NCBI GenBank assembly: GCA_021432655.1
Contig: MU271431.1
Location: 33,823-66,553, forward strand
Direction: 5' to 3'
Length of the DNA stretch: 32,731 bases
From: Atractiella rhizophila
Taxonomy: Eukaryota
Below are positions 3,041 to 32,731 of the stretch, piece after piece. The notes under the pieces were generated by a model. That model searched no databases, had not been told where the DNA came from, and saw nothing but the letters and a program-made list of their open reading frames with translations. The position numbers and the translations under genes were made by a program. Within the stretch, counting starts at the first letter, position 1. Each line of letters opens with the position of its first letter.

Positions 3041-3262
3041 GGGGAATCAGGTTGGCGATCGCCCTAACCCTATGTACACGTGCCGACGAGTGGAGAACAA
3101 GATAGAGAGAGGGAAATGAAGCGAGAGGAAACGAGCGAATGGAAGGAACATGAACGAAGCGAGAGAAACGAGCGAAGGGAAGGAAAGTGACGAAGTAAAA
3201 CGGAGTCAAGTGGTATGTCCCTCTCTCACAGCATTCTCGTTCTCCATCCCCCTTCTACTGAT

Positions 3263-3729
3263 GTGAGAGACATCCCAATCTTCTCCTCGCTCGTCGCTTC
3301 GATCAGAGTCTCTTCTTCTCCTTCGCTCCGGATCACTTTCGTCCTCCACTTTCGAAAGTGCCCTCCTTTGCCCCTCAGGTCACCTTCCCTTGGAGGTTCT
3401 TCCGTGGAATCATCCCTCCCTTCTTATTGTGTAGATGCGCATGTTGAAACGGCGGTTGGGAGATTTGTGACTGTCACACGACATGTGTCGTTTGAAGTGA
3501 GAGACATCCCAATCTTCTCCTCGCTCGTCGCTTCGATCAGAGTCTCTTCTTCTCCTTCGCTCCGGATCACTTTCGTCCTCCACTTTCGAAAGTGCCCTCC
3601 TTTGCCCCTCAGGTCACCTTCCCTTGGAGGTTCTTCCGTGGAATCATCCCTCCCTTCTTATTGTGTAGATGCGCATGTTGAAACGGCGGTTGGGAGATTT
3701 GTGACTGTCACACGACATGTGTCGTTTGA
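3263..3729. repeat. Apparently perfect 234-bp tandem duplication
   Basis: Unit gtgagagacatcccaatc...gtcgtttga starts at 3263 and 3497; it shows as a duplicated 78-aa block in ORF 3215..3754. Confidence 0.95.
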
Positions 3730-5875: not shown

Positions 5876-8469
5876 ATGACGAAAAGGAAGACAAAGAAGA
5901 CTCCAACGGAGAGAGCATCAACGCCACCACCTACCACTCCCAACTCTACTCAAAACACGAAGCAAAAATATCAACAAGAGGCAACTTCAAGAACGGTGCC
6001 ACCAAACTTCAAACCGTTGCAGCACAACCTGCCACTAGGTGAAAAACTCGACTTGGAATCACCGGTTGTGGTGTTGGAGGATCTACGGCCAAACATAGAC
6101 ATACCTGAGGTCGAACTGCCACCCGAGCTAACGACGTATAGGGCAGCGGACTGGAAGGATGAGAACTCGATTAAAACTTGGATGGACGAGCTGTATCGTG
6201 TGAGTGATTCACAGTTGATTGAGCGCCATGAATGAAGACACGGTGCTCCAGGTCGTGCGCAAGGAAAAGTCCAGATATTGCCAAGGTGGTACACGAATGC
6301 AGTTGTCAGAGAATCAGTCGACCAAGGATTCTTCAGAGCTGAACGGAATCTTGGTCCACCATGAGATCGACCCTCCTGTGAAGGCGTACTCGAACGTTTC
6401 GCTGTCATTCGAATTCAAAGACCAAGCTCAGAGTGCTGCTTCGGAAGGGAATACGCAACTAGCACGAAACTCTGCATACATTCTCGGGGCGAGACCTCGC
6501 TGTTTCATATGGAATCTGTTGATTGATAAAGCTGGAGATAAACATTTCTCTTGGGGTAAATGTATGCGGGGTGGGCACTTTCGGGGAAAGCCAAAACGCC
6601 TCGAAGACCACTTCAAAGAATTTGCACAGACCATCGCAAAGTTTGCGAAAGCGAGCGAGGAACAGATCGGATTTCTCAACATCTTTGATCACGACCCAGC
6701 GTGGCACTTCACCTGGGAGGTAGGCAGTTCGTCTCGAACTGAGGGGCCCGCCTCCACGAACCGTCCTTCCGCCTCAAGTTCCCGCGCCAGCTCCCCCAAC
6801 ATCTCGTTGCCTTCAGCCGAGCCATCATCCGCATCTACAACCACGCCATGGTCCACTATGCTCCTTCCTTCGCAATTCGTCCCAAACCCTAATCACAAAT
6901 TTAAACTGGACCTAAACGGATGTCTGAAGGGATGGGATGTCGTCGGCAAACGTTCCGAGTTCAAAGTGAACTGGGTCCAGGAAATTCTATTTCGTTCGTA
7001 CTCCGTTGCCGGCAGCGGAACGCAGGTTTGGATGTGCGAGCTGGAAGGAGGAGGGTACGGCGTCATTAAGCATGTGTGGCTGACGAAGGTCTTGTTGGAA
7101 AGGTTGAAAGAGCACGTAAAGCAGTTCGATGTTTGGAGGGACCTTTGGAAGGACCAACCGCCACTAAGGCACGATGGATCGCCAGCGGAAGCGGTGGATT
7201 TGACCTGGCTACGACACGCTCCTCGTCTCATTCTTTCTCAGCCTAATCTTTCAACCAGAAAACTCCTGTCCAAAAATGCGCTCTGGAATGGTGACGATGT
7301 TTCGGAGGTCATGGAGACTGACCTAATTCCCGTCCTCACCTACCACTCTACGGCGGGCCTCCCTCTTGCTTCAGCTAAACGTCTTGACGATGTGCTCGAC
7401 GCGTTCAAAGGTGTCTTGACGCGTACGGACTTTCTTGTTGCGTTTTGGGCTTGCCTTGATGTGTTAACAGAATTAGCCATGTTGAACGATCACGACTTTA
7501 TCCATCGAGATGTTTCCTATGCCAACATCTTTATTCGCGAGTTCCAGACGAACAGTGATGACGGGAATGCTCCAGCTGTTGGGTGGCTGAATGATTTCGA
7601 CCTCTCGATACGACGCGAGAAGAACAGGGGCAAACATGCTGCAAAGCCACATCCACTTTCAGCGAGTAGCTTGCCCTCGCCCCCGAATGTTTCGTCTTTG
7701 ACCTTTCATTTAGGGGACCTTCCTATTCCTGTCTCGATGCGTACTGAACGCTTTGAAGAAGAAAGGGGCTTCGTACGAGCAGTCGGTTATGGATGACATC
7801 GAGTCCGTTGTCTACTGCGTTATCTACTTTTTCTGCAATTTCTATCCGGACGCTACAGGACGGCTCGTGAGGCGAGATTGGAGCCGCAAGCTGGACACAC
7901 CAACAGGAGAAGGGTCTGGAAGGACCTTCAGTGGCTCCAAGGACCTGGAACAGAATGCCAAGAGGAATGAACGATCCTCCGCACAGCAGAGCGTCAAATC
8001 GGCGAAGGAACGATCCTCAACGCTCCATAGTGCTAAATCTGCAAAGGATCGATCCTCGACACTTCGCAGCGCTAAATCCGCAAAGGAAAAATCCTCAACA
8101 ATTCACAGCGTTGAATCCGTTCCGCAGAACATTGACTATCCACTCCAACCGTGGTTGACTCTGAGAAGTGCCTTTAACGAGAAATTACTTCTTCTCAACA
8201 CTTCCAAACCGACCAGTTTACCAGCTTTTACGTACCGTCTGAGCGAACATCTGGTCGACGATGGGCGTTGGAACCAAGATCACATCGCACGTCTACTTTG
8301 GGAACTCACTCGGCCACTTCAACTTCAGTCGGAAGATATTGTAAACGACATTTATTGGAGTCCGCTCTTTCCCGATGGATGCGATGAAAAAGCAGTAGTT
8401 AAGGACATTGTTGGAAAGATGGTGGAAGCTCTGGAGAGGGGAAAGAAGAGATTTAATGGGAAACTGTAA
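5876..8469 (+). CDS. Fungal protein kinase, FunK1 (Pkinase_fungal) family, ~813 aa; exons 5876-6199, 6252-7422, 7471-7661, 7714-8469
   Basis: Introns 6200-6251 (GTGAGT..CAG), 7423-7470 (GTACGG..CAG) and 7662-7713 (GCGAGT..TAG) join three ORF-track fragments in frame. Motifs SVAGSGTQVW, VIKHVW, HRDVSYANIFI, WLNDFDLS, GTFLFLS and DDIESVVY match FunK1 kinases (HRDxSxxN loop, DFD, GT..F.S, DDLES). Confidence 0.9.
7969..8118 (+). repeat. Coding 39-bp (13-aa) tandem repeat, ~4 units, in the kinase C-lobe
   Basis: ERSSAQQSVKSAK / ERSSTLHSAKSAK / DRSSTLRSAKSAK / EKSSTIHSVES. Confidence 0.9.
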
Positions 8470-9868: not shown

Positions 9869-11275
9869 TGTCAAAAGCACACCAGACTATAATACATACT
9901 ATCCTCACTGCACTGAGATAAGCGCTGTGGTGCCAGCACCAGTCCCCAAACAGAATCACATATGCGCACGACGTAAAAATTGCTTGCATTGTAAGAGTTA
10001 CTTACATGAGAAGTTTTGAAAGATCCATACTGAATAACTGAATGCTCGCTTGCAAGAGGATCACACCCACGCAAAGTGTCATTGTATTCACACAGTACAG
10101 AACAATCACTGACTGTGAGGGACGTCAATGTCAATGGTGGTGATGCCGAACAAGTTCACACAGTGAAGGAAGGACACTAAACCATGACAAAGTAGCATAG
10201 AGCAAGAAATGGAACAGCCAACATCACTCCAGCATGATGTCAATGTGCATCAAGCACCATGAGAAAGCTTGCACACGAGCAATGAAACCAGAACACTCTG
10301 ATAGGCATAGAAGTGGGAAAGCACACCTCATGCATGATATGCGAATGGAGGGAAAAACCAAATGGATGGAAAGGAAGCCAAGGAAGGGGAGGATGTGAGT
10401 CAAGTAGAAGTTAGAATCAGAAACTTCGGGAGGATGGAGAGAATAAACATAGGGGTACAACAAGCAGGAGCACAACCTGAAGCAGATGTTGCACAGTCAA
10501 AGATGTGAAGCAACATACAGAATAGGTTTTTTTTGGCATATGTATTGATATAACAAAATAAACCAACAAAAAGACGGAGGAATTGCAGACCTGTTTAGGG
10601 CTTGTGAATATAGGGCATTGAGAAGACAAACGTTAAACAGAAAACCAAACCAACCAAGAATAGCAAGAATTTGAATTTGTTTTATGGTCGAGCGGCTCCT
10701 GAGAAGGAAGGCAAGCGATTGAGACTTCTTTACGCCTGTGAATGTGAAATCGAGGAGAGGGAATCCACAGGAAATGAGAATCGAAGAGAGCATAGAAGCC
10801 GAGTAGGCACCTACTTCATCTAAGGACCACATAACTAGATGGCTGAATTCGCAATCACACTCGGAGGAAGATCAATCAAAGGAGCAGGGATAGGGTCACC
10901 GTTAAGCCAGACCACGACGAAGAAAAGGGGTAGTGATGACCGCCCCTGTGGCAGAAATACGGACATAGATGCCCTTTGCAGTGAACAAGACTTCATGATC
11001 CGTGTCTTTGACAATTTGAGAGACAGAGAAGAGAAGTACGAATAGCAGGAACATAGAGGACCTCACGAAGTCAGAGGACACATGGAGAGCCATTTGAAGT
11101 GTGAGTAGAGTAGAACATCTCACCATGACCAAAGATAGGCACCTTGACTCCATTGCCCACTTCAACGGTTTCAGTACCCAACTCTTCTTTGAAATTGTGG
11201 ATAACTTCCTCCAAAACCCTGTAGGCTTGGAAGAGCCCAAGTCAAGACATCCTTGATCTGAGCTATGAAGGGAGC

Positions 11276-11671
11276 TGTTAGGGCTGACACTATGTGCGGT
11301 CGCCGACGGGCGATGCGTCTGTAGTGGAGATAAGCCTAAGTGCATGATATGACATGAAGACTAACTTGTAGTGGAGATAAACCTAAGAGAATACTCTAAG
11401 GTCACCTTCACTACTCTCTGATCTATATATACAAGTGGAATAATACTGCCACAGAGCGTAGAGGAGAGCAGATGAAACATGTAAGAGAACCAAAAGGGGA
11501 AGTGACAGTGGGATTACACGGAGTTAATAAGAGGAGGATAGGCACAATTGGGCTAAGTGGTGATGTAGGTGCAAATGGGCGACGGGCGCCGATTCGCAGG
11601 GAACGCAAATGGGCGATAGGAGACGCAATCCGGGGAATGGACGCCGATTTGCGTAAGATGCAAACCTGACA
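11276..11671 (-). mobile_element. LTR (396 bp) without matching TSD
   Basis: TGTTAGG...CCTGACA termini; near-identical inverted copy of 22603-23019 lacking 21 bp. Flanks GGAGC and ATATC differ. Strand is inferred. Confidence 0.88.
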
Positions 11672-18552: not shown

Positions 18553-21220
18553 GTGGAAGATCATCTTGAGATCAAAGATTTGGGCCATCAAGGCAAAGCT
18601 TTTCAATGGACTAACTTTGAATTTGAGCAAAATATCAATCAAGAGGAGGATGCTCAAAATCCATTACCTCCACCACCTGCTGTTGAGCTTTGGGAGACGA
18701 TGAACTCTTCAATCTTTGCTTGTATCAGTGGTTCCAAGAACACCCTGGGGTCACACAGACTGCTTTCGACGATTTACTCCAACTTTTGCGCCATTTTAAT
18801 CTTTACTATGATTCACGCTCACGATATCGTAACGAGAACTTGGCAGAAAAGCTCACAAACCTTGAAGGAAATGAGCGAGATTGTTGTATTAACTCTTGTA
18901 TATCTTATACTGGCAGGTATAAAGATACCTTGGATTGCCCCTACTGTGGCGAATCAAGATATGACGAACAACATTTGGTGAAGAGAAAGAAGGTTCCACA
19001 AGAGCTTCATTTGGCTTCCCATTGCTCCTTGTATTCAGGCAATGTATCGGCGATCATTTCGTGCTGAAGCCATGCTATACCGTACGAGAGCAACTGCGAT
19101 AATGCAAGCAAATGCTGATAAACCGATGGAAGACTACATTGACTCTGAAAATTACAATCAACTTCGCCAAAGGTTTTTTAACAATGATCGGGATGTTGCT
19201 TTGCTTTTCTCCTCTGGCTCAAATCTTTCGTGACAAGCACTCAGACGCTTGGCTGGTCATTCTCTTGACCTTCAATTTATCTCCGGAGGAAAGTGTCAAA
19301 AAAACATAATATGATCCTCATTCTATTATTCCTGGACCAAATAATGCAAAGATATCTTTACTTTCATTCAAGAGCCACTGGAAGAACTGAAGAAGCTTGA
19401 GACTGAAGGCATTCGTACCTGTGATGAGACGGAGCAGGAATGGTTCACTTGCCATGTCTATCTTCTTCTAGTCGCTGCTGATATGCAAGGAAGCTCAAAA
19501 TTTTCTTGCACTGTGGGCCTACAAGGCAGGTGTGGTTGCAGCTTTTGCTACCTCATCGGTTATTATACAGGAAAGAGTGGATACTATTATGCTTTTGAGA
19601 ATCCAACTGATGACTTTGAATTTGGGACAACAAGATGAAGGAAGAAGGGGATCCACAAAGAGCAATATTCGAGAGAGTTACCACCTGCAAGAGTACAGAT
19701 GATACTTATGGGTCAGAAATGACACAGCTTTTACTTCCAAATCTCAAGAGGAGGCAGCAAAGCTTACCACCAGGTTTGGAATCGTCTGAAAGACTCCTTT
19801 TGCAAGCTGTGACACTTTTACCTGGCCATACTTCTTCCCGATCGATACTATGCATTTGTTCTTCCAACTTGTTACACTTTCCATGTTCAAAATTTGGCAT
19901 GGTGATGAGCAGATGGGCTTGAATGGGACTGAAGATTTTATCATCCCAGACGAAAGGTGGAAGGGGAGTGGTAGGCGTCAAAACTACATTTGAATCTACA
20001 TAACAAACTCTTCGTACTAGGTGCATTAATGGAAAATGCCCTCGATTTTGGCCAACAGCCTTTGGTGAGTGACCACGAAATATCTACACTGCTTGGACTC
20101 CCTACAAGAATAAAGATTGGGCTCAATGGTGCTTCATTTGGTCTCGACAATTTTTGCCTCATTTTTTACAGCCAAAATACCTGGACCACTGGCTCAAGTT
20201 TGTTACAGAAGTAATAATTGCTTGCCAGACACAGATCACTCATGAGGAACTTCTTGAGATGAAGCAACTCTTTGAAGAATTTCATGATGGGTTTATGCTT
20301 CTTTATTATCAGCGGAAAATCAAGCAGATCAAGATGTGTCAAATGACTCTTCATCGCCTTGTACTTGTCTATGACTGTATTCTGGAAATGGGATCTGTCT
20401 GGGTCTATTGGCAGTATCCCATGGAATGGTTGATCGGTCAAATGGTTCAATCTCTCCAGAATGTCACACAGTATACAGCAACTTTAGCACGTCTCATGCT
20501 TCACCGCGAGCATGTCAATATTGTCAACTGGCTTCATCCATTACCCAAAGACTGCCATATCTCGTGTCCCTTTCACAAGAGTATTTGGGATGACTCTTGC
20601 TTTCTAACTGTCAAGAGGGAGAAAAATCCATCTTTGTACAAGTCACCTCGAGAAGCCTGTTAGGGCTAACACTATGTGCGGTCGCCGATAGGCGATGCGT
20701 CTGTAGTGGAGGTAAACCTAAGTGATAGTATGGCATGAGAAGACTAACCTGTAGTGGAGGTAAACCTAAGAGAATACTCTGAGGTCACTACCACTACATC
20801 TCGATGTATATATACATATTTAAAAGCACTGCCATGAACTGTAACATATGATTCTTGAAACATGTAAGATAGCTAGATCAGGAAAGCAACAAAGGGAATA
20901 CGCGGAAATAAGGCATGTTGAACAGTACAAGTGAGAAAGGATAATAAGGCAATAATGGAGACGGTGCAGACCGGCGAAATGTATAAGGTTTGCTGAGCGG
21001 CGATTCGTGTGAGATAGGGAAAGCGGCGATCAGCGCGTACGTGAGCAAAGCGGCGATGGGGGGCACGTGATCCCATAACGTCGTGAAGTAGGTCACGTGA
21101 CTTCGTGTGGTGCATTTCGATAATGCGTAGGGGCAAGCCTGACAAAGCCCTTGTCCGATATATTTATTGGCAACATAACCAACAAGATTTCTTCGGTCTG
21201 GATGAAGATGACATGGTGTC
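18553..21220 (+). mobile_element. Degenerate CACTA/En-Spm (Transposase_21/tnp2-type) transposase, interrupted by a solo LTR
   Basis: DCCINSCISYTG..CPYCGESRY zinc motif; DRDVALLFS; AQIFRDKHSDAW; FNLSPE; IIPGP; ADMQGSSK..GRCGCSFC; FPIDTMHL; LHRLVLVYDCILEMGSVWVYWQYPME. The frame resumes after the LTR (PREA|LVRYIYWQ). Confidence 0.88.
20658..21144 (-). mobile_element. Solo LTR (487 bp), sister subfamily, 5-bp TSD AAGCC
   Basis: TGTTAGG...CCTGACA termini flanked by AAGCC at 20653-20657 and 21145-21149; the first ~200 bp match the 11276 LTR and the rest is diverged. Strand is inferred. Confidence 0.92.
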
Positions 21221-22602: not shown

Positions 22603-23019
22603 TGTCAGGTTTGCATCTTACGCAAATCGGCGCCCGTTCGCCGGATTGCGTCTCCTATCGCCCATTTGCGTTCCCTGCGAATCGGCGCCCGTTCGCCGGA
22701 CTGCGTCTCCCGTCGCCCATTTGCACCTACATCACCACTTAGCCCAATTGTGCCTATCCTCCTCTTATTAACTCCGCGTAATCCCACTGTCGCTTCCCCT
22801 TTTAGTTCTCTTACATGTTTCATCTGCTCTCCTCTACGCTCTGTGGCAGTGTTATTCCGCTTGGATATATAGATCAGAGAGTAGTGGAGGTGACCTTAGA
22901 GTATTCCCTTAGGTTTATCTCCACTACAAGTTAGTCTTCATGTCATATCATGCACTTAGGTTTATCTCCACTACAGACGCATCGCCTATCGGCGACCGCA
23001 CATAGTGTCAGCCCTAACA
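22603..23019 (+). mobile_element. Solo LTR (417 bp), 5-bp TSD GACGG, nested in the hAT left end
   Basis: TGTCAGG...CCTAACA flanked by GACGG at 22598-22602 and 23020-23024; CpG-rich; TATATAG at ~22866. Confidence 0.93.
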
Positions 23020-23505
23020 GACGGCAAGAAACGGTGTGCAGACAGACGGGTTTGACAGTGAACATGGGTCAGAACACGGGTGTTCAACAAAATATTTCTT
23101 TATTCCATCCAGCGCCGCCAGAATATGTGATTCATACCACAAGCTGGGGGGCCCCTCGTCCCTCGGGGGGACCACATTGTGTTTCTGCTGTTTTTCAATG
23201 AAAAGTGGTTGACTATGCTGTTAGGAACATGCTGAGAGATAATCAGTGATTGAGTACTCATAACACTTCTTTGGAACTACATTATCTGTTAAATTGTGTG
23301 CAGGCACTCACAGTTTCAAGAGTGACAAATGTGAGGGAACAGAGAATCGAACCAACACCAAAAACAAAATTATGTCACACTCTCACTTAACACCAACTAC
23401 ACCATCGCACAGACTCTTTGTCTCAAAACCCGATGTCAAGTAGGTAAGGAAAACTTGCCCTAAGTACCAACTTGACACACAATTATTTCTGGTCCTTTAA
23501 ATAAG

Positions 23506-24947: not shown

Positions 24948-25192
24948 NNNNNNNNNNNNNNNNNNNNNNNNNNNNNNNNNNNNNNNNNNNNNNNNNNNNN
25001 NNNNNNNNNNNNNNNNNNNNNNNNNNNNNNNNNNNNNNNNNNNNNNNNNNNNNNNNNNNNNNNNNNNNNNNNNNNNNNNNNNNNNNNNNNNNNNNNNNNN
25101 NNNNNNNNNNNNNNNNNNNNNNNNNNNNNNNNNNNNNNNNNNNNNNNNNNNNNNNNNNNNNNNNNNNNNNNNNNNNNNNNNNNNNNNNNNNN
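24948..25192. other. Assembly gap (245 N)
   Basis: Run of N. Confidence 1.
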
Positions 25193-26575
25193 CCTTTTCT
25201 TGGTGTCCCTACATTTCAGGACAAACGCTACATCGACGCGATAATCGTACCGATTACCGGCTGGAGAAGTCTCCCTAGTGATCCCTGCAATATGGTGTAA
25301 GTCGACGACCTCTGGTGACGAGCATACGTCGCAGGAAGCAGTAGTTGCGAGAGTCATGCGTAGCTCTATTCATAACCTTCCACGGGAAGTACTGCCAGTT
25401 TCTTATTCGGATACGTCCGCTCCCGTTCGATGAGTGACTCTAACCTACACCCGAAACTTCCCACAAGCGGGAACAGGAAGAGGGCAGCATAGCTCTTTAG
25501 CTTTAGTAAGTCGGTAGGCTGTCGACCTCGTAAGGGCAGTAGTGACAAGCAGACCTTGCGCGCTTATTTCTACAACCGTATCCTTTGTAGCGCTACCTAT
25601 TCCAGCACTAGCAAATTGTACCGATTAAGACTGTTGTTTAGTTCCGTTCGGGGTTTTGCTTTTCTCTCGTGCGTGCGCAGTTCTGTGGAAACTTGCGCAG
25701 CTCGTGTAGCAGTTCTGAAAGTCGACTTCTTTCTCCCTCCGGCCGGCATCTTAACATCTACTCCTGCCCTTAATCCAGTCAGAGGTACTGGAGGCTTTGT
25801 AGCGGCGGTAAGGTCTCACGTAAAACCTGTCCTAAAAAGACCAACTTTCTAATCCGACTCTTTCTTACTCTACTCCTCGCACAGCTTCGGTAAGGTTTAG
25901 GCAGCGTAGACGACCGCTAGGTAGCTCGAAAGCTCCGCCAACCAGGAAGGTTTCGAGGGAGGTTGGTAACTTGACGAAATGCACGAGGAGGTTGGAAAAG
26001 TTGTGCAGGAGGCAGTCGGTATGTACGAATTACTGTGGTATGGGTGGAGGAAGGTCGAGCGTGTAGGTTTGAACACAAGGAGATGGTCGTTATCTCATAC
26101 TTGCTTTTTCTTAAAGGTCCTGGGTCAACCCGAATTTGAGCCTTGAGAACGGCTGTTGTAGGGTAGGGAAGTTTGTAGGCAAAGAGGAAGTTGCGGAAGT
26201 CATGCGTAGCTCTGTCCTTATCCTTCCAGGGGACTTACTTCCCAGTTTCTTGTTTGTAGGTCCCGCTCCCGTTCGACGAGTGCCTTTCACCTACACCGAA
26301 ACTTCGTACAAACGGGGACAAGAAGAGCGCAGCATAGCTATTCAGCTTTAGTAAGTCGGTGGGCTGTCGACCTCGTAAGGGCAGTAGTGACAAGCAGACC
26401 TTGAGCGCTTATTTCTACAACCGTATCCTTTGTAGAGCTACCTATTTCAGCACTAGCAAGGTGTACCGATTAAGACAATTGTGCAGTTCCGTTCGGGTTT
26501 TTGTTGTTCTTTCAGGCATGCGCAGTTCTGTGGAAACTTGCGCAGCTCGTGTAGCAGTTCTGCAAATCGAGTGCA
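25193..26575. pseudogene. 3' part of kinase copy 3, mirrored, internally duplicated and deleted
   Basis: Backwards read aligns to ~7372-7760 (26570 to 26183), then ~6915-7784 (26182 to 25316), then ~8480-8600 (25315 to 25193). Most of exon 4 is missing; one-base deletion near 25822. Confidence 0.9.
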
Positions 26576-27164: not shown

Positions 27165-30100
27165 TCAGATGACCCCCATGACAATTGTGCACCTCAGGGA
27201 ATCCCACTTCCCACCTGCACAACATCAGCATTGGATATTCGGGTCGTCTCACTTACCGGCACCGGCACCGAGGTATTCTTCACTTCTCAAGCTTGTGCTC
27301 TTCCATCCCCAGCTTTGTGAAACAGCGAATGAATCGGGACCAGACGCAAACTTGGTGAGTGCCGTGCCTCCATTTCCTGTCAGTCGACAAAGACAACACA
27401 GAGAAGAAAGACCATACCCAATAAGTTCTGGCAGTTGATGCTGAAGTAAGTTTGGATGGCTTTCCTTCTGTCGACATAGGGAACCACGATTGCAGCTCGA
27501 GGTGGATGGAGGTCGTCACCCAAAAGTGGTGGCTCTTCTGTCGATGGGGAATCCAGTGCGACTGAGATGTCAGGGGAGCTGGCACTTGGAGGTCGTGAAG
27601 CTGGCGGCGGAGGGTCCGTCATGGTTTGGCGATGGAGATATACCTATTCAGACCGTGAGGAACGGATATAAGGGAGAAGGAAAGCGAACACCAAGCTGCA
27701 GTTGCTTCTTTCGAACGATTTGAAGGTAGGCATTGAACAAGCTTCCAGCGTATACGAAAGTTTGCGAATAAAGTCTCTGTTTCTCCTTTAGCTCGCTTAC
27801 ACCCCAGAACTCCACAGAGAATCGGCATGGCTCATACGCGGTCGCCTTCCTTCCTTCGAGTTCTTCGAACTGTGTGGTCAATAAAGATGAACGAATGGCG
27901 GTCGATAAGGAGAAGAAGCGATCGGCGCCAGGGGGAAGGGACATCGGGGATGAGGAATGCCGACGAGGGTGTGACGGCGGGAGAGGAAGGGAGAAGTCAG
28001 ACAGCCTGCGTTATCATTAGTACAGCCAGCTCCGACGCGGAAGGCACATACCGTAAGGTTGAATCCACAGGCACCATGAACCACTTCGAAACGTCTTTAT
28101 CTCCAAGGTCGCTCTCCTTCGAAACCAGCTTTTTCGAAATACCCAACTCATCCTCTCCATCCTTCTCTGGTTGTCCATCGTCGAATCGAGCAGCGAATGC
28201 ATTTGGGGCGATTGGAATCTTTGCCTTGAACTCTTCGGCCATCCATAGAGCCTTCCGCAGGACTTCCTTATCAACGTACGGTTGGCCAGTTATAGGACAC
28301 ATGTCTTTGCCGATTTTCTCCAATTGAAGAAACGTCAAGTGCGAGTAATAGATCCCATCTGCGAACAGAGCTTTGAATTCTCGCTCCTCATCTTCGTCTG
28401 CAAGCAAATCCGTCCCGTCTACAGAATCAATGCCTCGAGACTTTTCCCCATCGACAGATGAGGACATATCCATCGACGCAAGAGATTCAGCCAAACGATC
28501 TTCCGCGACACCTAATTGCCTATCTTTCCGACGAAGGTCGACCACTCTCTTTGCTACAGAATATCGATCGAATTCGCCACCACCTGCCATGTTGCTTGTG
28601 GAAGTGTCAGCACCGAGGTTACTCATGAAGAAGGCGTCGCTGCTGATAATACCGCGAATCCAGCTAGCGGGAACCCCTCCGCTCCTCCAAACTCTGAGGT
28701 CAGGGCGCTTCAGACACTGCCATCGCGCGTAGACAGGATGTGTGAGGTATTGATGGAGGTTTCGCGTGGTTCGCACTTGATTGAGGCGCGATAGCGGATC
28801 TTGAAGCTGCTCTTCGATCGGAAGGATGTCGCTGCCCCATTTTGCCAACCAGCACGCGCACGATTCTCCCACCCTTTCTTGAATTGGGCCGTAAAAGAAA
28901 TCGCCAGCTCCGGAAGAGATGGACGCGGTAGGATCGAGAACGTTGTTGGGAAGCCAACTACCGACTCCTTCAAGGCCACGGCATCCTGATTCTCTTTCTT
29001 CTTTCCCCGACCAGCCTGTAACCCCTTGGCCAAGCGAGAACCTGAGATAAGTGAGGATAGTGAAAGGGGTGATGCTGTTCTGTATCATAGCCATCACGCT
29101 CTGGACCAGAGGCGGTATCGAGAGGTAAGTCGCGGTAGCGAGAAGAGAAAGGAGGAACTGAGGAGTCGCGGGATGAGGACCTGATCCGTCAGGTTGCACC
29201 CATTCGTCCAGGGTAAGCAACTCATCGTGCTCGGAATCCCTGACATCTGCCAATGCATGAAAAGCCGGTCCAAGCGGTGTTCCAGCGAGTGGTTGAGTCC
29301 TAGCCCAATAGGGGAGCAACAACGAGGGAGGATGACCATAAAGGTGTCCGAGACAGTACTCGAACGCCGCGCGTGTGATTTGATGACTGGCCGGACCTTC
29401 GAAGTGGAGGGTGAGGAAGGACGAGTCGTCTTCTGGGACGTTGGGATGGACGGACGCCTTGGAGGAGGTGGCTGAAGAGTTGGAAGAGACTGATGAAGCT
29501 CGAGAGCGCGTCCGCGGCTTTGCCTTTGCCTTTCACGTCAGCGCGAGATCGAAATCCTGGTTGGCGACCGCGCGCTCCTGATTCTCTCCACCGCCTTGTA
29601 GCATGCTCGCGAAGAATTCGGATTGTCCAAGCACAAGACGATGCACCCTGTTCACACAAATATACTCACGTCAGACGTCTGCCTCATAAGTGAGAGGGAT
29701 ATCATCCATCATGACACCGGTTTAAAGCTGGTGAACTGCCACGACATTCGTGACCTCGAGTCTGCACGATACTTGTGCGGACAGAACACTGGAGGTCAAA
29801 GTAGATACATAGAGTCGCGCCAGCCCTGTGATCTGTATTTAGAATGAGAAAAAGGACAGATATAATCGCATATACAACATACAGGGCACCAGTAGCGCTT
29901 TAGACTCTCGAAAGAAATCGAGAAGCGAAATCACAAAGAACATCGTGAAAATTCACGAGAATCAAATCCAACTCGCACTTTATGGGACATCGCTTACTCC
30001 AAGACGCCATATAAATCCAAATCTTTTTCAGCGAAGTAGAACAGATCCAAATCTATCTCTGCCCCGAATCACTCAACGCTGTGCCCACTGCGTTGTGTAC

Positions 30101-31315
30101 CTGAGGTCCAGCGCGGTGAAACGGCGCGACGCGTCAACAATCCACGATCACGCTTTCCTTCTCCGCGCAGACAGAAAGGTATGAACGGGGCAACCACTTT
30201 GAAAAATCACTCATTACTTTGCCTTCCATTTCCATGTCCATTTGACTAAGGTCGCTTTGACGCGCCATTCGGTCCCAGTCCACTCTTCGAACTTTGGGTC
30301 AAGTGGCTGAACTCGTTCTCCAGCTCAAACGCGCCAGAACCGATCTCACATCCCCAAACCCAACATTCCACACAACCCCAATCCCAAAACAAGGCTCTCT
30401 CAATTTCGCACCAAAGAAATACAGAGAACTAGAGGAGAGAGTGTGAAGGAACAGGAAGACGAACCGATATCCCCTCCCCCACGGCCACACTCTAACCTCC
30501 AAATCGCTCATCCCTCCCTTCAGCAAGCCCTGCTCATAAAGATAGCTCGAAAGTCCGCCTCCTGCTCCTCCTAATCCTCCCAAAAGGCCGAATCCACTCC
30601 CTCCCATACCCATGCCCATGCCCATACTGGCGCCGTCGAACACACGACTGCCACCGAACGCGCCAGTCCCGAGAGAAGGGTGTTGTGGGGAAGGGTCGGA
30701 GGGAGGGAGGGGGAGAGGGACGTGTAGACCCGTTCCTGCGCTTGGGCTTGGGGTGGTGGGCGTGAGACCGAGCGCGCTACCTAGGTGGAGGGGACGCTGC
30801 GTTGAGAGTGTAGGGTTGGGCTGAGCGTTCGTATTATTGTTATTACTACTAATAATGGCGCTGGTGGTGCTAGTGGCGGTGGCGGGAGTGGTGGTGGCAG
30901 TAGAGGTCGAAGGAAGGACGGCAGACGGGGTGGAGGCGGACGCGCCGTGTCGCGTGAGGTTGGAGGTGGACGACGAAGCTTGAGCGCCAGCGGTGCGCGG
31001 TCTCGAAGCACTCGAGGGGAGAGGCGCGACCGTCCTCGGCCTACTTGGCGTGCTCGCTCCTCCTCCTCCTCCTCCACTTGCAGGCGTGTGACCCGAAGAA
31101 GGTGCCACGGCCGGAGCAGGCCGCGGACTGCCCCCGGTGTGGGTGAGAGAGGATACGACGGCGTGCACCGGTGTGGAGGTGCCGCGGGGCCGTGTGGGCG
31201 GGGGAGAGGACGGCGGAGAGGGAGGAGAGGAGGAGGGAGGGGAGAAGGAGAGCTGCCGGGAGGCTGGATCCCAGAAGAGGGAGAGCTCGGTGGGCGGGTG
31301 TTTTGGTTTGGCCAT
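27165..31315 (-). CDS. BTB/POZ-domain protein (fungal Btb2/germ-cell-less-like type); exons 31315-30465, 29647-28052, 28005-27690, 27643-27418, 27376-27257, 27214-27165
   Basis: GT-AG introns join LYEQGLLKGGMSDLEVRVW..GYR|VHRLVLGQSEFF..ITRAAFEYCLGHLYG (BTB) to the conserved C-terminus PCRFSVEF..YAGSLFNAYLQ..LG|VYLHRQ..PYVDRR..YFSI..SGPDSFAVSQSWGWKS..LRCTIVMGVI*. One in-frame TGA at 29533-29535 needs explaining. Long Pro/Ser/Gly-rich N-terminus. Confidence 0.85.
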
Positions 31316-32348
31316 TGTGGATATAGATACGGAGAACCCTTTATCGATATCCTTTGCGCTGAGAAGGAGTATAGTACTGAGTGATTACCTACCCAAGCCT
31401 TCTCTCCCTAACAGGCTGCCTTGCCTAGCTCTTCGTCTACGTGAGAGCGATCACTTCGCTGATCAGCAATCGAATCCGTCCGATTAGAGACGCAGCAAGG
31501 AGACTCGGAGGAAGAGTTGTGATACTGTAGGGGACCAAGAAGGAAGATGTTACCCACCGGCAACTCGTCGGCAGCAATCTGAGATCCGTGCGGCTCTTCT
31601 TTCAGTCTTCTCGAAACATACCCACTCCCAATCGAAACAACATAATGTGAGAAAAGTTGAACTTGAAGCAAGGTATGCATGTCCTGGGATGAAGTTGGAA
31701 ATGGGATTATTGCATTCAATATTGGATAGGTCGCTGGTCAGTTCAGGTGAGAACGGTGAATGAAGGATGATTTCGATGATAATTGACAGTATTGGAGGCG
31801 CTTTCTGAATCAAATCAGGCAGAGGGTAAAATGGCGCTAGATGTATATCGTCTTCATGTTATAATTTTGACATGAGATGCGGTCCTTTTGAGAAAGTATT
31901 TTGAATGAAGGTTTGAGTGAAGGGTGACTGCTATCTAGTAATGAGGATATGCTTGATATAACTTATGTCCAGGTTGCGTGTTTATGCTATAAATGGAGAG
32001 GACGAATCTATGTGCATTTTCTCTCACCTTCCAGAAATTCAAAAGATTCAAGCGAGACATTGCGATGGATGAACTGGTCCTGGAATATTTCTCTTGTTAT
32101 CAGATTTTTCAGGTTTGTCAAAGTTGTTCCTGGCATGCCATCGATCAGTCGTGTCAGTCGTGTCAATCCATCTGAGTCTATCCATCCACACATCCTGCCC
32201 TTAATGAATGTTGCAAAACGCGATGAAATTGGGTCAACAAGCACAACGAGCTAGGTGCTTTGTGTATCTGCCATGAAGGCAAGGCGTAGACAACGAGTTT
32301 TACGACTCTCGCTATCCTCCAAACCATCATCCACAACAACACCGTCGC

Positions 32349-32692
32349 TTAACCGCAGCAAGATCCAACGATGCAGCTGTATCATCACCATCCATCGACC
32401 ATCAAAAGTCAGTTCAAACTCTTCTTCTCCTCCAGCTCTTCTCAAGCTCCACCAAGTGAACGAGTGCTGTCGACTTACCAAGTGTAAGGCAGTTCCCTGC
32501 CGCCACCAGAAAGAAGTCAATACAGCATCCTTCCAATCAAGAAAAGAAAGAGAGAAGATCTCACCCGCAGCACGAACGAGGATTCAACAGTCTTGCAGCT
32601 TCTTCAGGCGACAGGATCGGCTCCGGAGTGGGAGAGGAGAGCGCGATGGAGGCGAAGAGGGAGAGGAAGGCGACGGGGAGGGCGAGTTTCAT
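32349..32692 (-). CDS. Small secreted cysteine-rich prepropeptide, 57 aa; exons 32692-32565, 32496-32479, 32376-32349
   Basis: MKLALPVAFLSLFASIALSSPTPEPILSPEEAARLLNPR-SCCGELPYTCCIVGSCCG*. Hydrophobic signal peptide; introns GTGAGA..TTGAC..CAG (68 nt) and GTAAGT..CTGAC..CAG (102 nt) splice in frame to TAA. Confidence 0.85.
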
Positions 32693-32731
32693 TCCTGTGA
32701 TTGGGATCAGGAGAAAGGTCGATCCTCTCTT

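Follow-up and report, generated by a model that had tools for sequence, protein, structure and literature searches.

The far end of the DNA analysed here (the window; 32,731 nucleotides of contig MU271431.1 of Atractiella rhizophila) carries on its minus strand a short, split reading frame. The question it raises is whether this frame is a gene for a small secreted cysteine-rich peptide and, if so, whether the peptide is new and what it might do. In the part of the source available, A. rhizophila is described as a root endophyte of the Atractiellomycetes and as the dominant root fungus in five out of eight soils of a Populus study (PMC6450171). Judged by titles and abstract beginnings, and among the matches listed, the literature naming the species is ecological or taxonomic. 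No paper on its secreted proteins was found in the literature searched, which includes only a minority of the subscription journals; supplementary secretome tables could list the gene.

Translation of the window gave three coding exons that join into 57 codons and a TAA stop codon (Table 1). An earlier reading made from the DNA letters and their open reading frames (the sequence-only reading) had proposed this three-exon model, including an exon of only 18 nt, and it proved exact: neither intron is present in any of the four RNA contigs, and in all four runs both introns were removed and the micro-exon retained. These contigs derive from 4 of 24 listed runs (three root metatranscriptomes and one soil metatranscriptome, all used as assembled contigs), and the 24 listed runs contained 6-14% of the sampled words. 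Three of the four runs have year and library type in common and may represent one campaign. Expression level cannot be ranked from such contigs. In each run one contig leads from 32564 to 32377 by way of 16 micro-exon letters. The coding region is covered entirely by three contigs and, apart from its first 50 nt, by the fourth. No amino-acid change was found in the contigs; by codon reading, the sole coding difference, at 32633, is a synonymous third position. Skipping of the symmetric micro-exon would, according to the translation, preserve the frame and leave five cysteines; only inclusion was seen in the four contigs, an assembled form of evidence from which rare splice forms are lost.

Table 1. 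Features of the peptide gene in the window (all on the minus strand, listed in the direction of transcription)
Feature	Position	Strand	Remarks
5'-UTR intron, 3' part	32695..32731	(-)	basis: two of four RNA contigs
Coding exon 1	32692-32565	(-)	128 nt
Predicted signal peptide	32636..32692	(-)	residues 1-19; cut after residue 17 also possible
Pro-region	32576..32635	(-)	residues 20-39; acidic, Pro-rich; net charge about -1.5
LNPR, predicted Kex2 site	32576..32587	(-)	LxxR with Pro at P2; unchanged in 5/5 copies
Predicted mature start, first CC pair	32565..32575	(-)	RNA-covered in 4/4 runs
Intron	32497..32564	(-)	68 nt, GT-AG, phase 2; absent from 4/4 RNA contigs
Micro-exon	32479..32496	(-)	18 nt; six-residue loop and part of third Cys; identical in 5/5 copies
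Intron	32377..32478	(-)	102 nt, GT-AG, phase 2; absent from 4/4 RNA contigs
Last coding exon	32349..32376	(-)	28 nt including TAA; fourth Cys, four-residue loop, last CC pair, Gly; RNA-covered in 4/4 runs
3' UTR	32205..32348	(-)	poly(A) site near 32205; basis: one of four RNA contigs

The transcript is longer than the coding exons. Two of the four RNA contigs extend past 32694 into an exon of 34-37 nt whose letters agree with those of the upstream exon in a different copy of the gene, and the gene therefore has an additional, non-coding 5' exon, its fourth. Since the contig of the window stops within the 5'-UTR intron, the first exon and the promoter of the window copy are missing; a TATA-like box lies 167-176 nt ahead of the ATG in all four other copies. 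At the other end, one of the four contigs carries a 9-letter untemplated tail at 32205, where the genomic DNA is not A-rich. Transcription of the peptide gene, removal of three introns and polyadenylation are thereby shown for root or soil samples. In one copy (C353b) the 5'-UTR intron, about 90 nt upstream of the ATG, has a GC instead of a GT donor and a different acceptor context; this copy may have a GC-AG intron or be weakened. The immediate stop codon that the sequence-only reading had noted upon retention of the first coding intron is present, yet appears incidental, as one of the five copies has a donor without it.

The encoded precursor has the layout of a pre-pro-peptide. Its beginning shows the traits of a signal peptide (script-based), with Lys at position 2, a hydropathy of 1.9-2.6 across residues 6-16 and small residues at -3 and -1. 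The C-terminal 18 residues form the framework CC-x6-CC-x4-CC, directly preceded by LNPR; every CC pair has Ser or Thr just ahead of it. The six cysteines in three vicinal pairs, the SCCG at both ends and the creation of the middle pair across the second splice junction, where the first Cys of that pair is divided by the intron, had all been claimed before and were confirmed in the translation. The signal-pro-mature layout with a Kex2-type site, likewise claimed, is supported at the level of the sequence by LNPR, which conforms to LxxR with Pro at P2. For Kex2, Arg is required at P1, Leu is the preferred residue at P4 and Pro is one of those accepted at P2; KR/RR and LxxR sites, counted together, occur in some 30% of 120 fungal effectors (PMC8528282). 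The genome of A. rhizophila contains a Kex2 gene (contigs C155/C992) with proprotein-convertase P-domain matches over the cut-off. Judged by their motifs, a subtilisin domain, the P-domain and a membrane segment lie together in this one locus. A second, distinct gene with a proprotein-convertase P-domain was observed at C68:95460-95794, and the presence of two kexin-like genes could be relevant to how this species processes its peptides.

A structure model computed from the one sequence is of low confidence (pLDDT 60.5, pTM 0.25); it places helices at residues 6-18 and 29-35 and a hairpin that pairs residues 48-49 with 55-56. Foldseek with this weak model gave no match up to E=10. As to a possible amidation of the peptide at its C-terminal Gly, a search for domains of amidating enzymes gave no match, and its control was silent as well.

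Searches at the protein, DNA and pattern level agree on five near-identical copies of the gene, two on contig C1, two on contig C353 and one in the window. Some of these are probably alleles, because the assembly contains some single-copy genes in duplicate. As two contigs carry two copies in cis, at least one haplotype, given two haplotypes, carries three copies. Across the five copies 7 of 174 coding columns vary and all cysteines are unchanged. Among the variable codons five are synonymous (one of them a Cys codon), one exchanges Leu and Val in the signal peptide and one Ser and Ala in the second loop. Set against 45.3 synonymous and 122.7 non-synonymous sites, these five synonymous and two non-synonymous codons give p=0.018, a test that comprises seven variable codons in related, non-independent copies. 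The introns provide a further comparison, with 23 of 161 sites variable as against 2 of 123 non-synonymous sites (p=9e-5). The window and one of the copies on C1 (C1a) have 100% identical coding sequences, whereas their identity is 90.5% within introns, 84.6% within the 3' UTR and 64% beyond it. The protein sequence of the peptide is clearly maintained and not diversified. The identity of some copies at synonymous sites would have a probability of about 0.014 if these sites drifted like introns, and this identity, including that between the window and C1a, may reflect gene conversion or codon selection. Near-invariance is unlike what is seen in effectors under host recognition, and it fits a structural role equally well.

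The pro-region has no amino-acid change in the five copies and is conserved like the core. This conservation and the helix modelled with low confidence at residues 29-35 would suit a product in which LNPR remains uncut, a secreted 38-residue form with an acidic helix in the active molecule or as a tether to the wall. For the rust protein MLP124266, the part of the source available describes a 69-residue mature protein studied with its charged N-terminal part retained (PMC6889267). Against the uncut form, a site with Leu in P4, Pro in P2 and Arg in P1 immediately precedes the first CC pair, as in Kex2-processed pro-domains (PMC8528282), and LxxR directly precedes the mature part in the BP family too, as far as the accessible part of that source goes (PMC13525654). 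We regard the uncut form as very improbable, and cleavage after LNPR is assumed below.

The locus is thus occupied by a real, expressed, conserved, multicopy pre-pro-peptide gene. In all four copies with upstream DNA the peptide gene begins about 0.98 kb past a fungal protein kinase gene (PF17667), with which it shares a duplicated unit of 4-5 kb. A functional link between the two was rejected: the kinase copies upstream of peptide genes have an in-frame stop in four of four units and frame changes in three of four, and the open kinase copy in the window (6219-8469, plus strand) has no peptide gene behind it. The kinase family itself is expanded: 79 pieces of the genome match it, and many of them contain stops. 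The duplications are transposon-rich: Plavaka, retrotransposon and Helitron remnants are found in the flanks, and a Plavaka domain over the cut-off lies between the two copies on C1. An open frame at 20073-20663 of the window (plus strand), with only a sub-threshold Pfam match, resembles a remnant of a CACTA/Plavaka-type transposase. A scan of 153 open frames (minimum length 105-120 aa) from the window and from 7 of 13 flanking stretches revealed no peptide-tailoring enzyme, although intron-rich genes can escape it.

Directly downstream of the peptide gene, at about 27400-31400 of the window (minus strand), lies a gene with a 511-aa open frame, which has no match in Pfam or among PDB sequences and which by eye we take to resemble a BTB-type protein; it is complete on contigs C252 and C353 (98%) and truncated on C1. 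Several further structures were observed in the window. Inverted repeats of about 400 nt at 11275-11671 and 22603-23020, separated by 11 kb and complementary at 96-97% of positions, are probably transposon ends; part of a third copy is found at 20657. An 870-nt direct repeat (827-1693 and 25316-26183; 24.5 kb apart, 90%) has a further partial copy at 26189-26570. There is also an exact 234-nt tandem duplication at 3259-3726 and a run of N, an assembly gap, at 24948-25192.

The gene had been called unannotated, which is incorrect: NCBI holds five entries in two clusters, all labelled hypothetical and partial, and one of them, from A. rhizophila, is identical over all 57 residues. Three entries are 55 aa long and lack the last Cys-Gly, unlike the five genomic copies, all of which encode it. 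The gene is therefore annotated, partly wrongly, yet uncharacterised; neither a characterised family nor a paper was found for it. A 290-aa pirin in the 90% cluster of the peptide was rejected as a relative and reflects a database clustering error.

Relatives were searched for in several collections. Word-seeded protein searches with exon 1 and with residues 18-57 returned two candidates each, both from A. rhizophila, and no relative was found among 194 longer proteins. Phmmer against 1.84 billion representatives gave three matches, namely the query itself and two that were rejected, one as a repeat protein of bacterial type and the other as a repeat translation poor in cysteines. In metagenomes, none of 598 stretches was confirmed as a homologue. 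The DNA pattern of the framework occurred there at least 131 times at no fewer than 121 loci, at least three of them with an open frame and an upstream Met, and none was signal-like among the matches listed; one match that was read whole lay on the opposite strand of a Gln/Pro/Ala-rich frame. In the genome of A. rhizophila itself a relaxed pattern gave 76 matches, by eye low-complexity repeats, and no intronless copy of the gene. The precursor matched no Pfam family up to E=1, in agreement with the sequence-only reading, which did not recognise its cysteine pattern as that of a hydrophobin, defensin or knottin. DUF2650 (PF10853) was rejected at 15.7 bits and E=0.012 over 12 residues, below the curated cut-off of 22.9 bits, as was a zinc finger, the one match among PDB sequences (E=0.79). 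In the protein atlas the best score was 0.77, under the noise level, and residues 20-57 had no usable match. Provisionally the peptide appears to be an orphan of A. rhizophila, judged from collections that have little power for fungal genes of 57 residues split by introns. In plant-associated fungi, orphans among the small, cysteine-rich secreted proteins are a common occurrence. The sequence-only reading had made the case depend in part on homologs with conserved cysteines; none was found outside the species, and the gene is real nonetheless, because RNA and purifying selection show it independently. On the whole that reading is partly supported.

The secretion, cleavage, disulfides and function of the peptide are what we infer from here on. 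The precursor of 57 residues would enter the ER by means of its signal peptide, its six cysteines would pair as three disulfides, and Kex2 would cut after LNPR; the secreted product would have 18 residues and a mass of 1790.6 Da (monoisotopic, oxidised). We consider this sequence of events, taken jointly, probable. Enumeration gives 15 possible pairings of the six cysteines, 8 of them without a vicinal bond, and if no neighbours are bonded each CC pair must by logic bond once to each of the other two. The resulting triangular cage would join both ends of the peptide and display two short loops. Given this biogenesis, we see about an even chance that the cage is a protease-resistant ligand, produced in bulk, for some conserved extracellular protein where root and hypha meet. 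It would bind either an enzyme or receptor of the plant apoplast or a target belonging to a microbial competitor; in the searches of sequences, PDB and folds no homologue, fold or family indicated a target. The copies of the gene would increase the dose and would not diversify the product. Production in bulk is suggested because of the copy number and the C-ending codons, which account for 17 of 20 in codons 2-21 against about 6 expected; signal-coding regions may show such a bias regardless of expression. The whole chain, from a Kex2-matured, three-disulfide 1.79 kDa peptide made in bulk to the binding of a conserved extracellular target, is plausible, with its chance somewhat short of even.

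The same peptide could instead assemble on hyphae or sclerotia, perhaps by way of disulfides that link CC pairs of different molecules, and serve as an adhesive or surface-active coat in place of hydrophobins. Several copies with an almost identical product would suit the need for dose, and the predicted mature peptide is near-neutral with a hydropathy of +0.98; this value, however, stems mostly from the cysteines, the other 12 residues reaching about +0.2 by hand on the same scale. No hydrophobin candidate was found in this genome by an exon-by-exon search whose control was silent, a result that is no proof of absence. Hydrophobins are absent from the Puccinia and Rhodotorula genomes that were screened, according to the accessible part of the source (PMC3879219). 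A precedent is offered by Rep1 of Ustilago maydis, another basidiomycete, in which small Kex2-released peptides, the repellents, replace hydrophobins; as described in the part of the source available, Rep1 is a repeat precursor of many peptides that form amyloid-like fibrils, whereas the gene described here encodes a single cysteine-packed core (PMC8528282). We consider the coat unlikely, if a reading to be reckoned with. A more specific version is distinctly unlikely; in it, the three CC pairs form a disulfide architecture not described before, be it a triangular cage or a ladder between molecules, and the peptide self-assembles to take the place of hydrophobins in a filamentous root fungus of the Pucciniomycotina. 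If the peptide coats hyphae, it would bear on how hydrophobins are replaced in the Pucciniomycotina, and the specific version, if true, would bring both a minimal scaffold and a class of fungal surface protein that are new.

Metal binding, raised by the sequence-only reading, would make the product a peptide that binds Cu, Zn or Cd, or a redox-buffering thiol peptide, secreted into the rhizosphere. Six of its 18 residues are Cys, arranged in CC pairs, which together with an SCCG start occur in metallothioneins, and amplification of dosage is typical of metal-tolerance genes. Metallothioneins, however, are cytosolic and lack a signal peptide, whereas the precursor has a predicted one that would route its cysteines through the oxidising ER, and the even number of cysteines fits three disulfides. 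In addition, no metallothionein family was matched, the predicted mature peptide has no His and a single acidic residue (Glu), and no metal-transport gene was seen among the flanking frames scanned. This role is improbable.

Antimicrobial peptides had been mentioned earlier too; that the product is a membrane-active one resembling defensins or AFP/PAF is quite improbable. A C-x3-G-x-C string of gamma-core form is present near the C-terminus, a kind of string that easily arises in a sequence this dense in cysteines. AFP/PAF and BP proteins are larger than the peptide. As far as the part of the source available goes, the AFP/PAF and BP families (BPF superfamily) have in common with the peptide the signal peptide, a pro-region with LxxR, adjoining the mature part in BP, and many cysteines, and differ from it in being basic, while the peptide has three CC pairs, no Lys or Arg and no family match (PMC13525654). 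The preferred reading thus remains the secreted, disulfide-bonded ligand. A. rhizophila has in this peptide a candidate secreted product that is expressed in environmental root samples, present in several copies and almost invariant; with only 18 residues it can be synthesised chemically, which would make its disulfide pattern, fold and activity directly accessible.

How the peptide relates to known systems can be read from its framework. Hydrophobins have eight cysteines in a set pattern, unlike the six found here in a precursor for which Pfam gave no family. Short three-disulfide peptides of other kingdoms include the E. coli heat-stable enterotoxin STa and the M- and T-superfamily conotoxins, which share a pre-pro precursor, a mature peptide of about 13-20 residues and CC pairs; they have two such pairs, not three, and are of unrelated origin. 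Cone-snail transcriptomes may already include a framework of three pairs, and no relevant paper on a CC-CC-CC cysteine framework was found in the literature searched. KEPs and fungal RiPP precursors carry repeated cores between Kex2 sites, in contrast to the single core of this precursor. The granulin core, CC-X6-CC-X5-CC, comes near in spacing; in the part of the source available it belongs to a module of twelve cysteines in about 55 residues with four CC pairs (PMC1310530). The likeness is one of spacing only, as the second loop of the peptide has four residues instead of five and the peptide six cysteines and no Pfam match; against the stacked beta-hairpins of the granulin fold, the model of the peptide (pLDDT 60.5) shows one hairpin.

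Among fungal proteins, the rust MLP124266/AvrP4 family comes from the same subphylum and is, in the accessible part of its description, likewise multigene, with a flexible charged N-terminal part and a C-terminal part of six cysteines in three disulfides (PMC6889267). The knottin spacing given there, C-X2-7-C-X3-10-C-X0-7-C-X1-17-C-X4-19-C, differs from the 0, 6, 0, 4, 0 of the peptide, in which the gaps Cys I-II and V-VI are both 0, and the 13 members of the rust family are diverse whereas the copies of the peptide are almost invariant. The secreted proteins with a Kex2-processed pro-domain (K2PP) share with it a signal peptide, a short LxxR pro-region, a cysteine-rich mature part and a plant-associated producer (PMC8528282), and on sequence grounds the predicted signal peptide, the LNPR end of the pro-region in all five copies and the Kex2 homologue in the producer place the peptide with them. 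It differs from the described K2PP members, which come from pathogens, in having a mature part of only 18 residues, and no sequence relation was found. The class, that of the small secreted cysteine-rich pre-pro-peptides, is thus known, while the framework and the size appear new, and three CC pairs in so short a chain would add a very compact disulfide scaffold to it.
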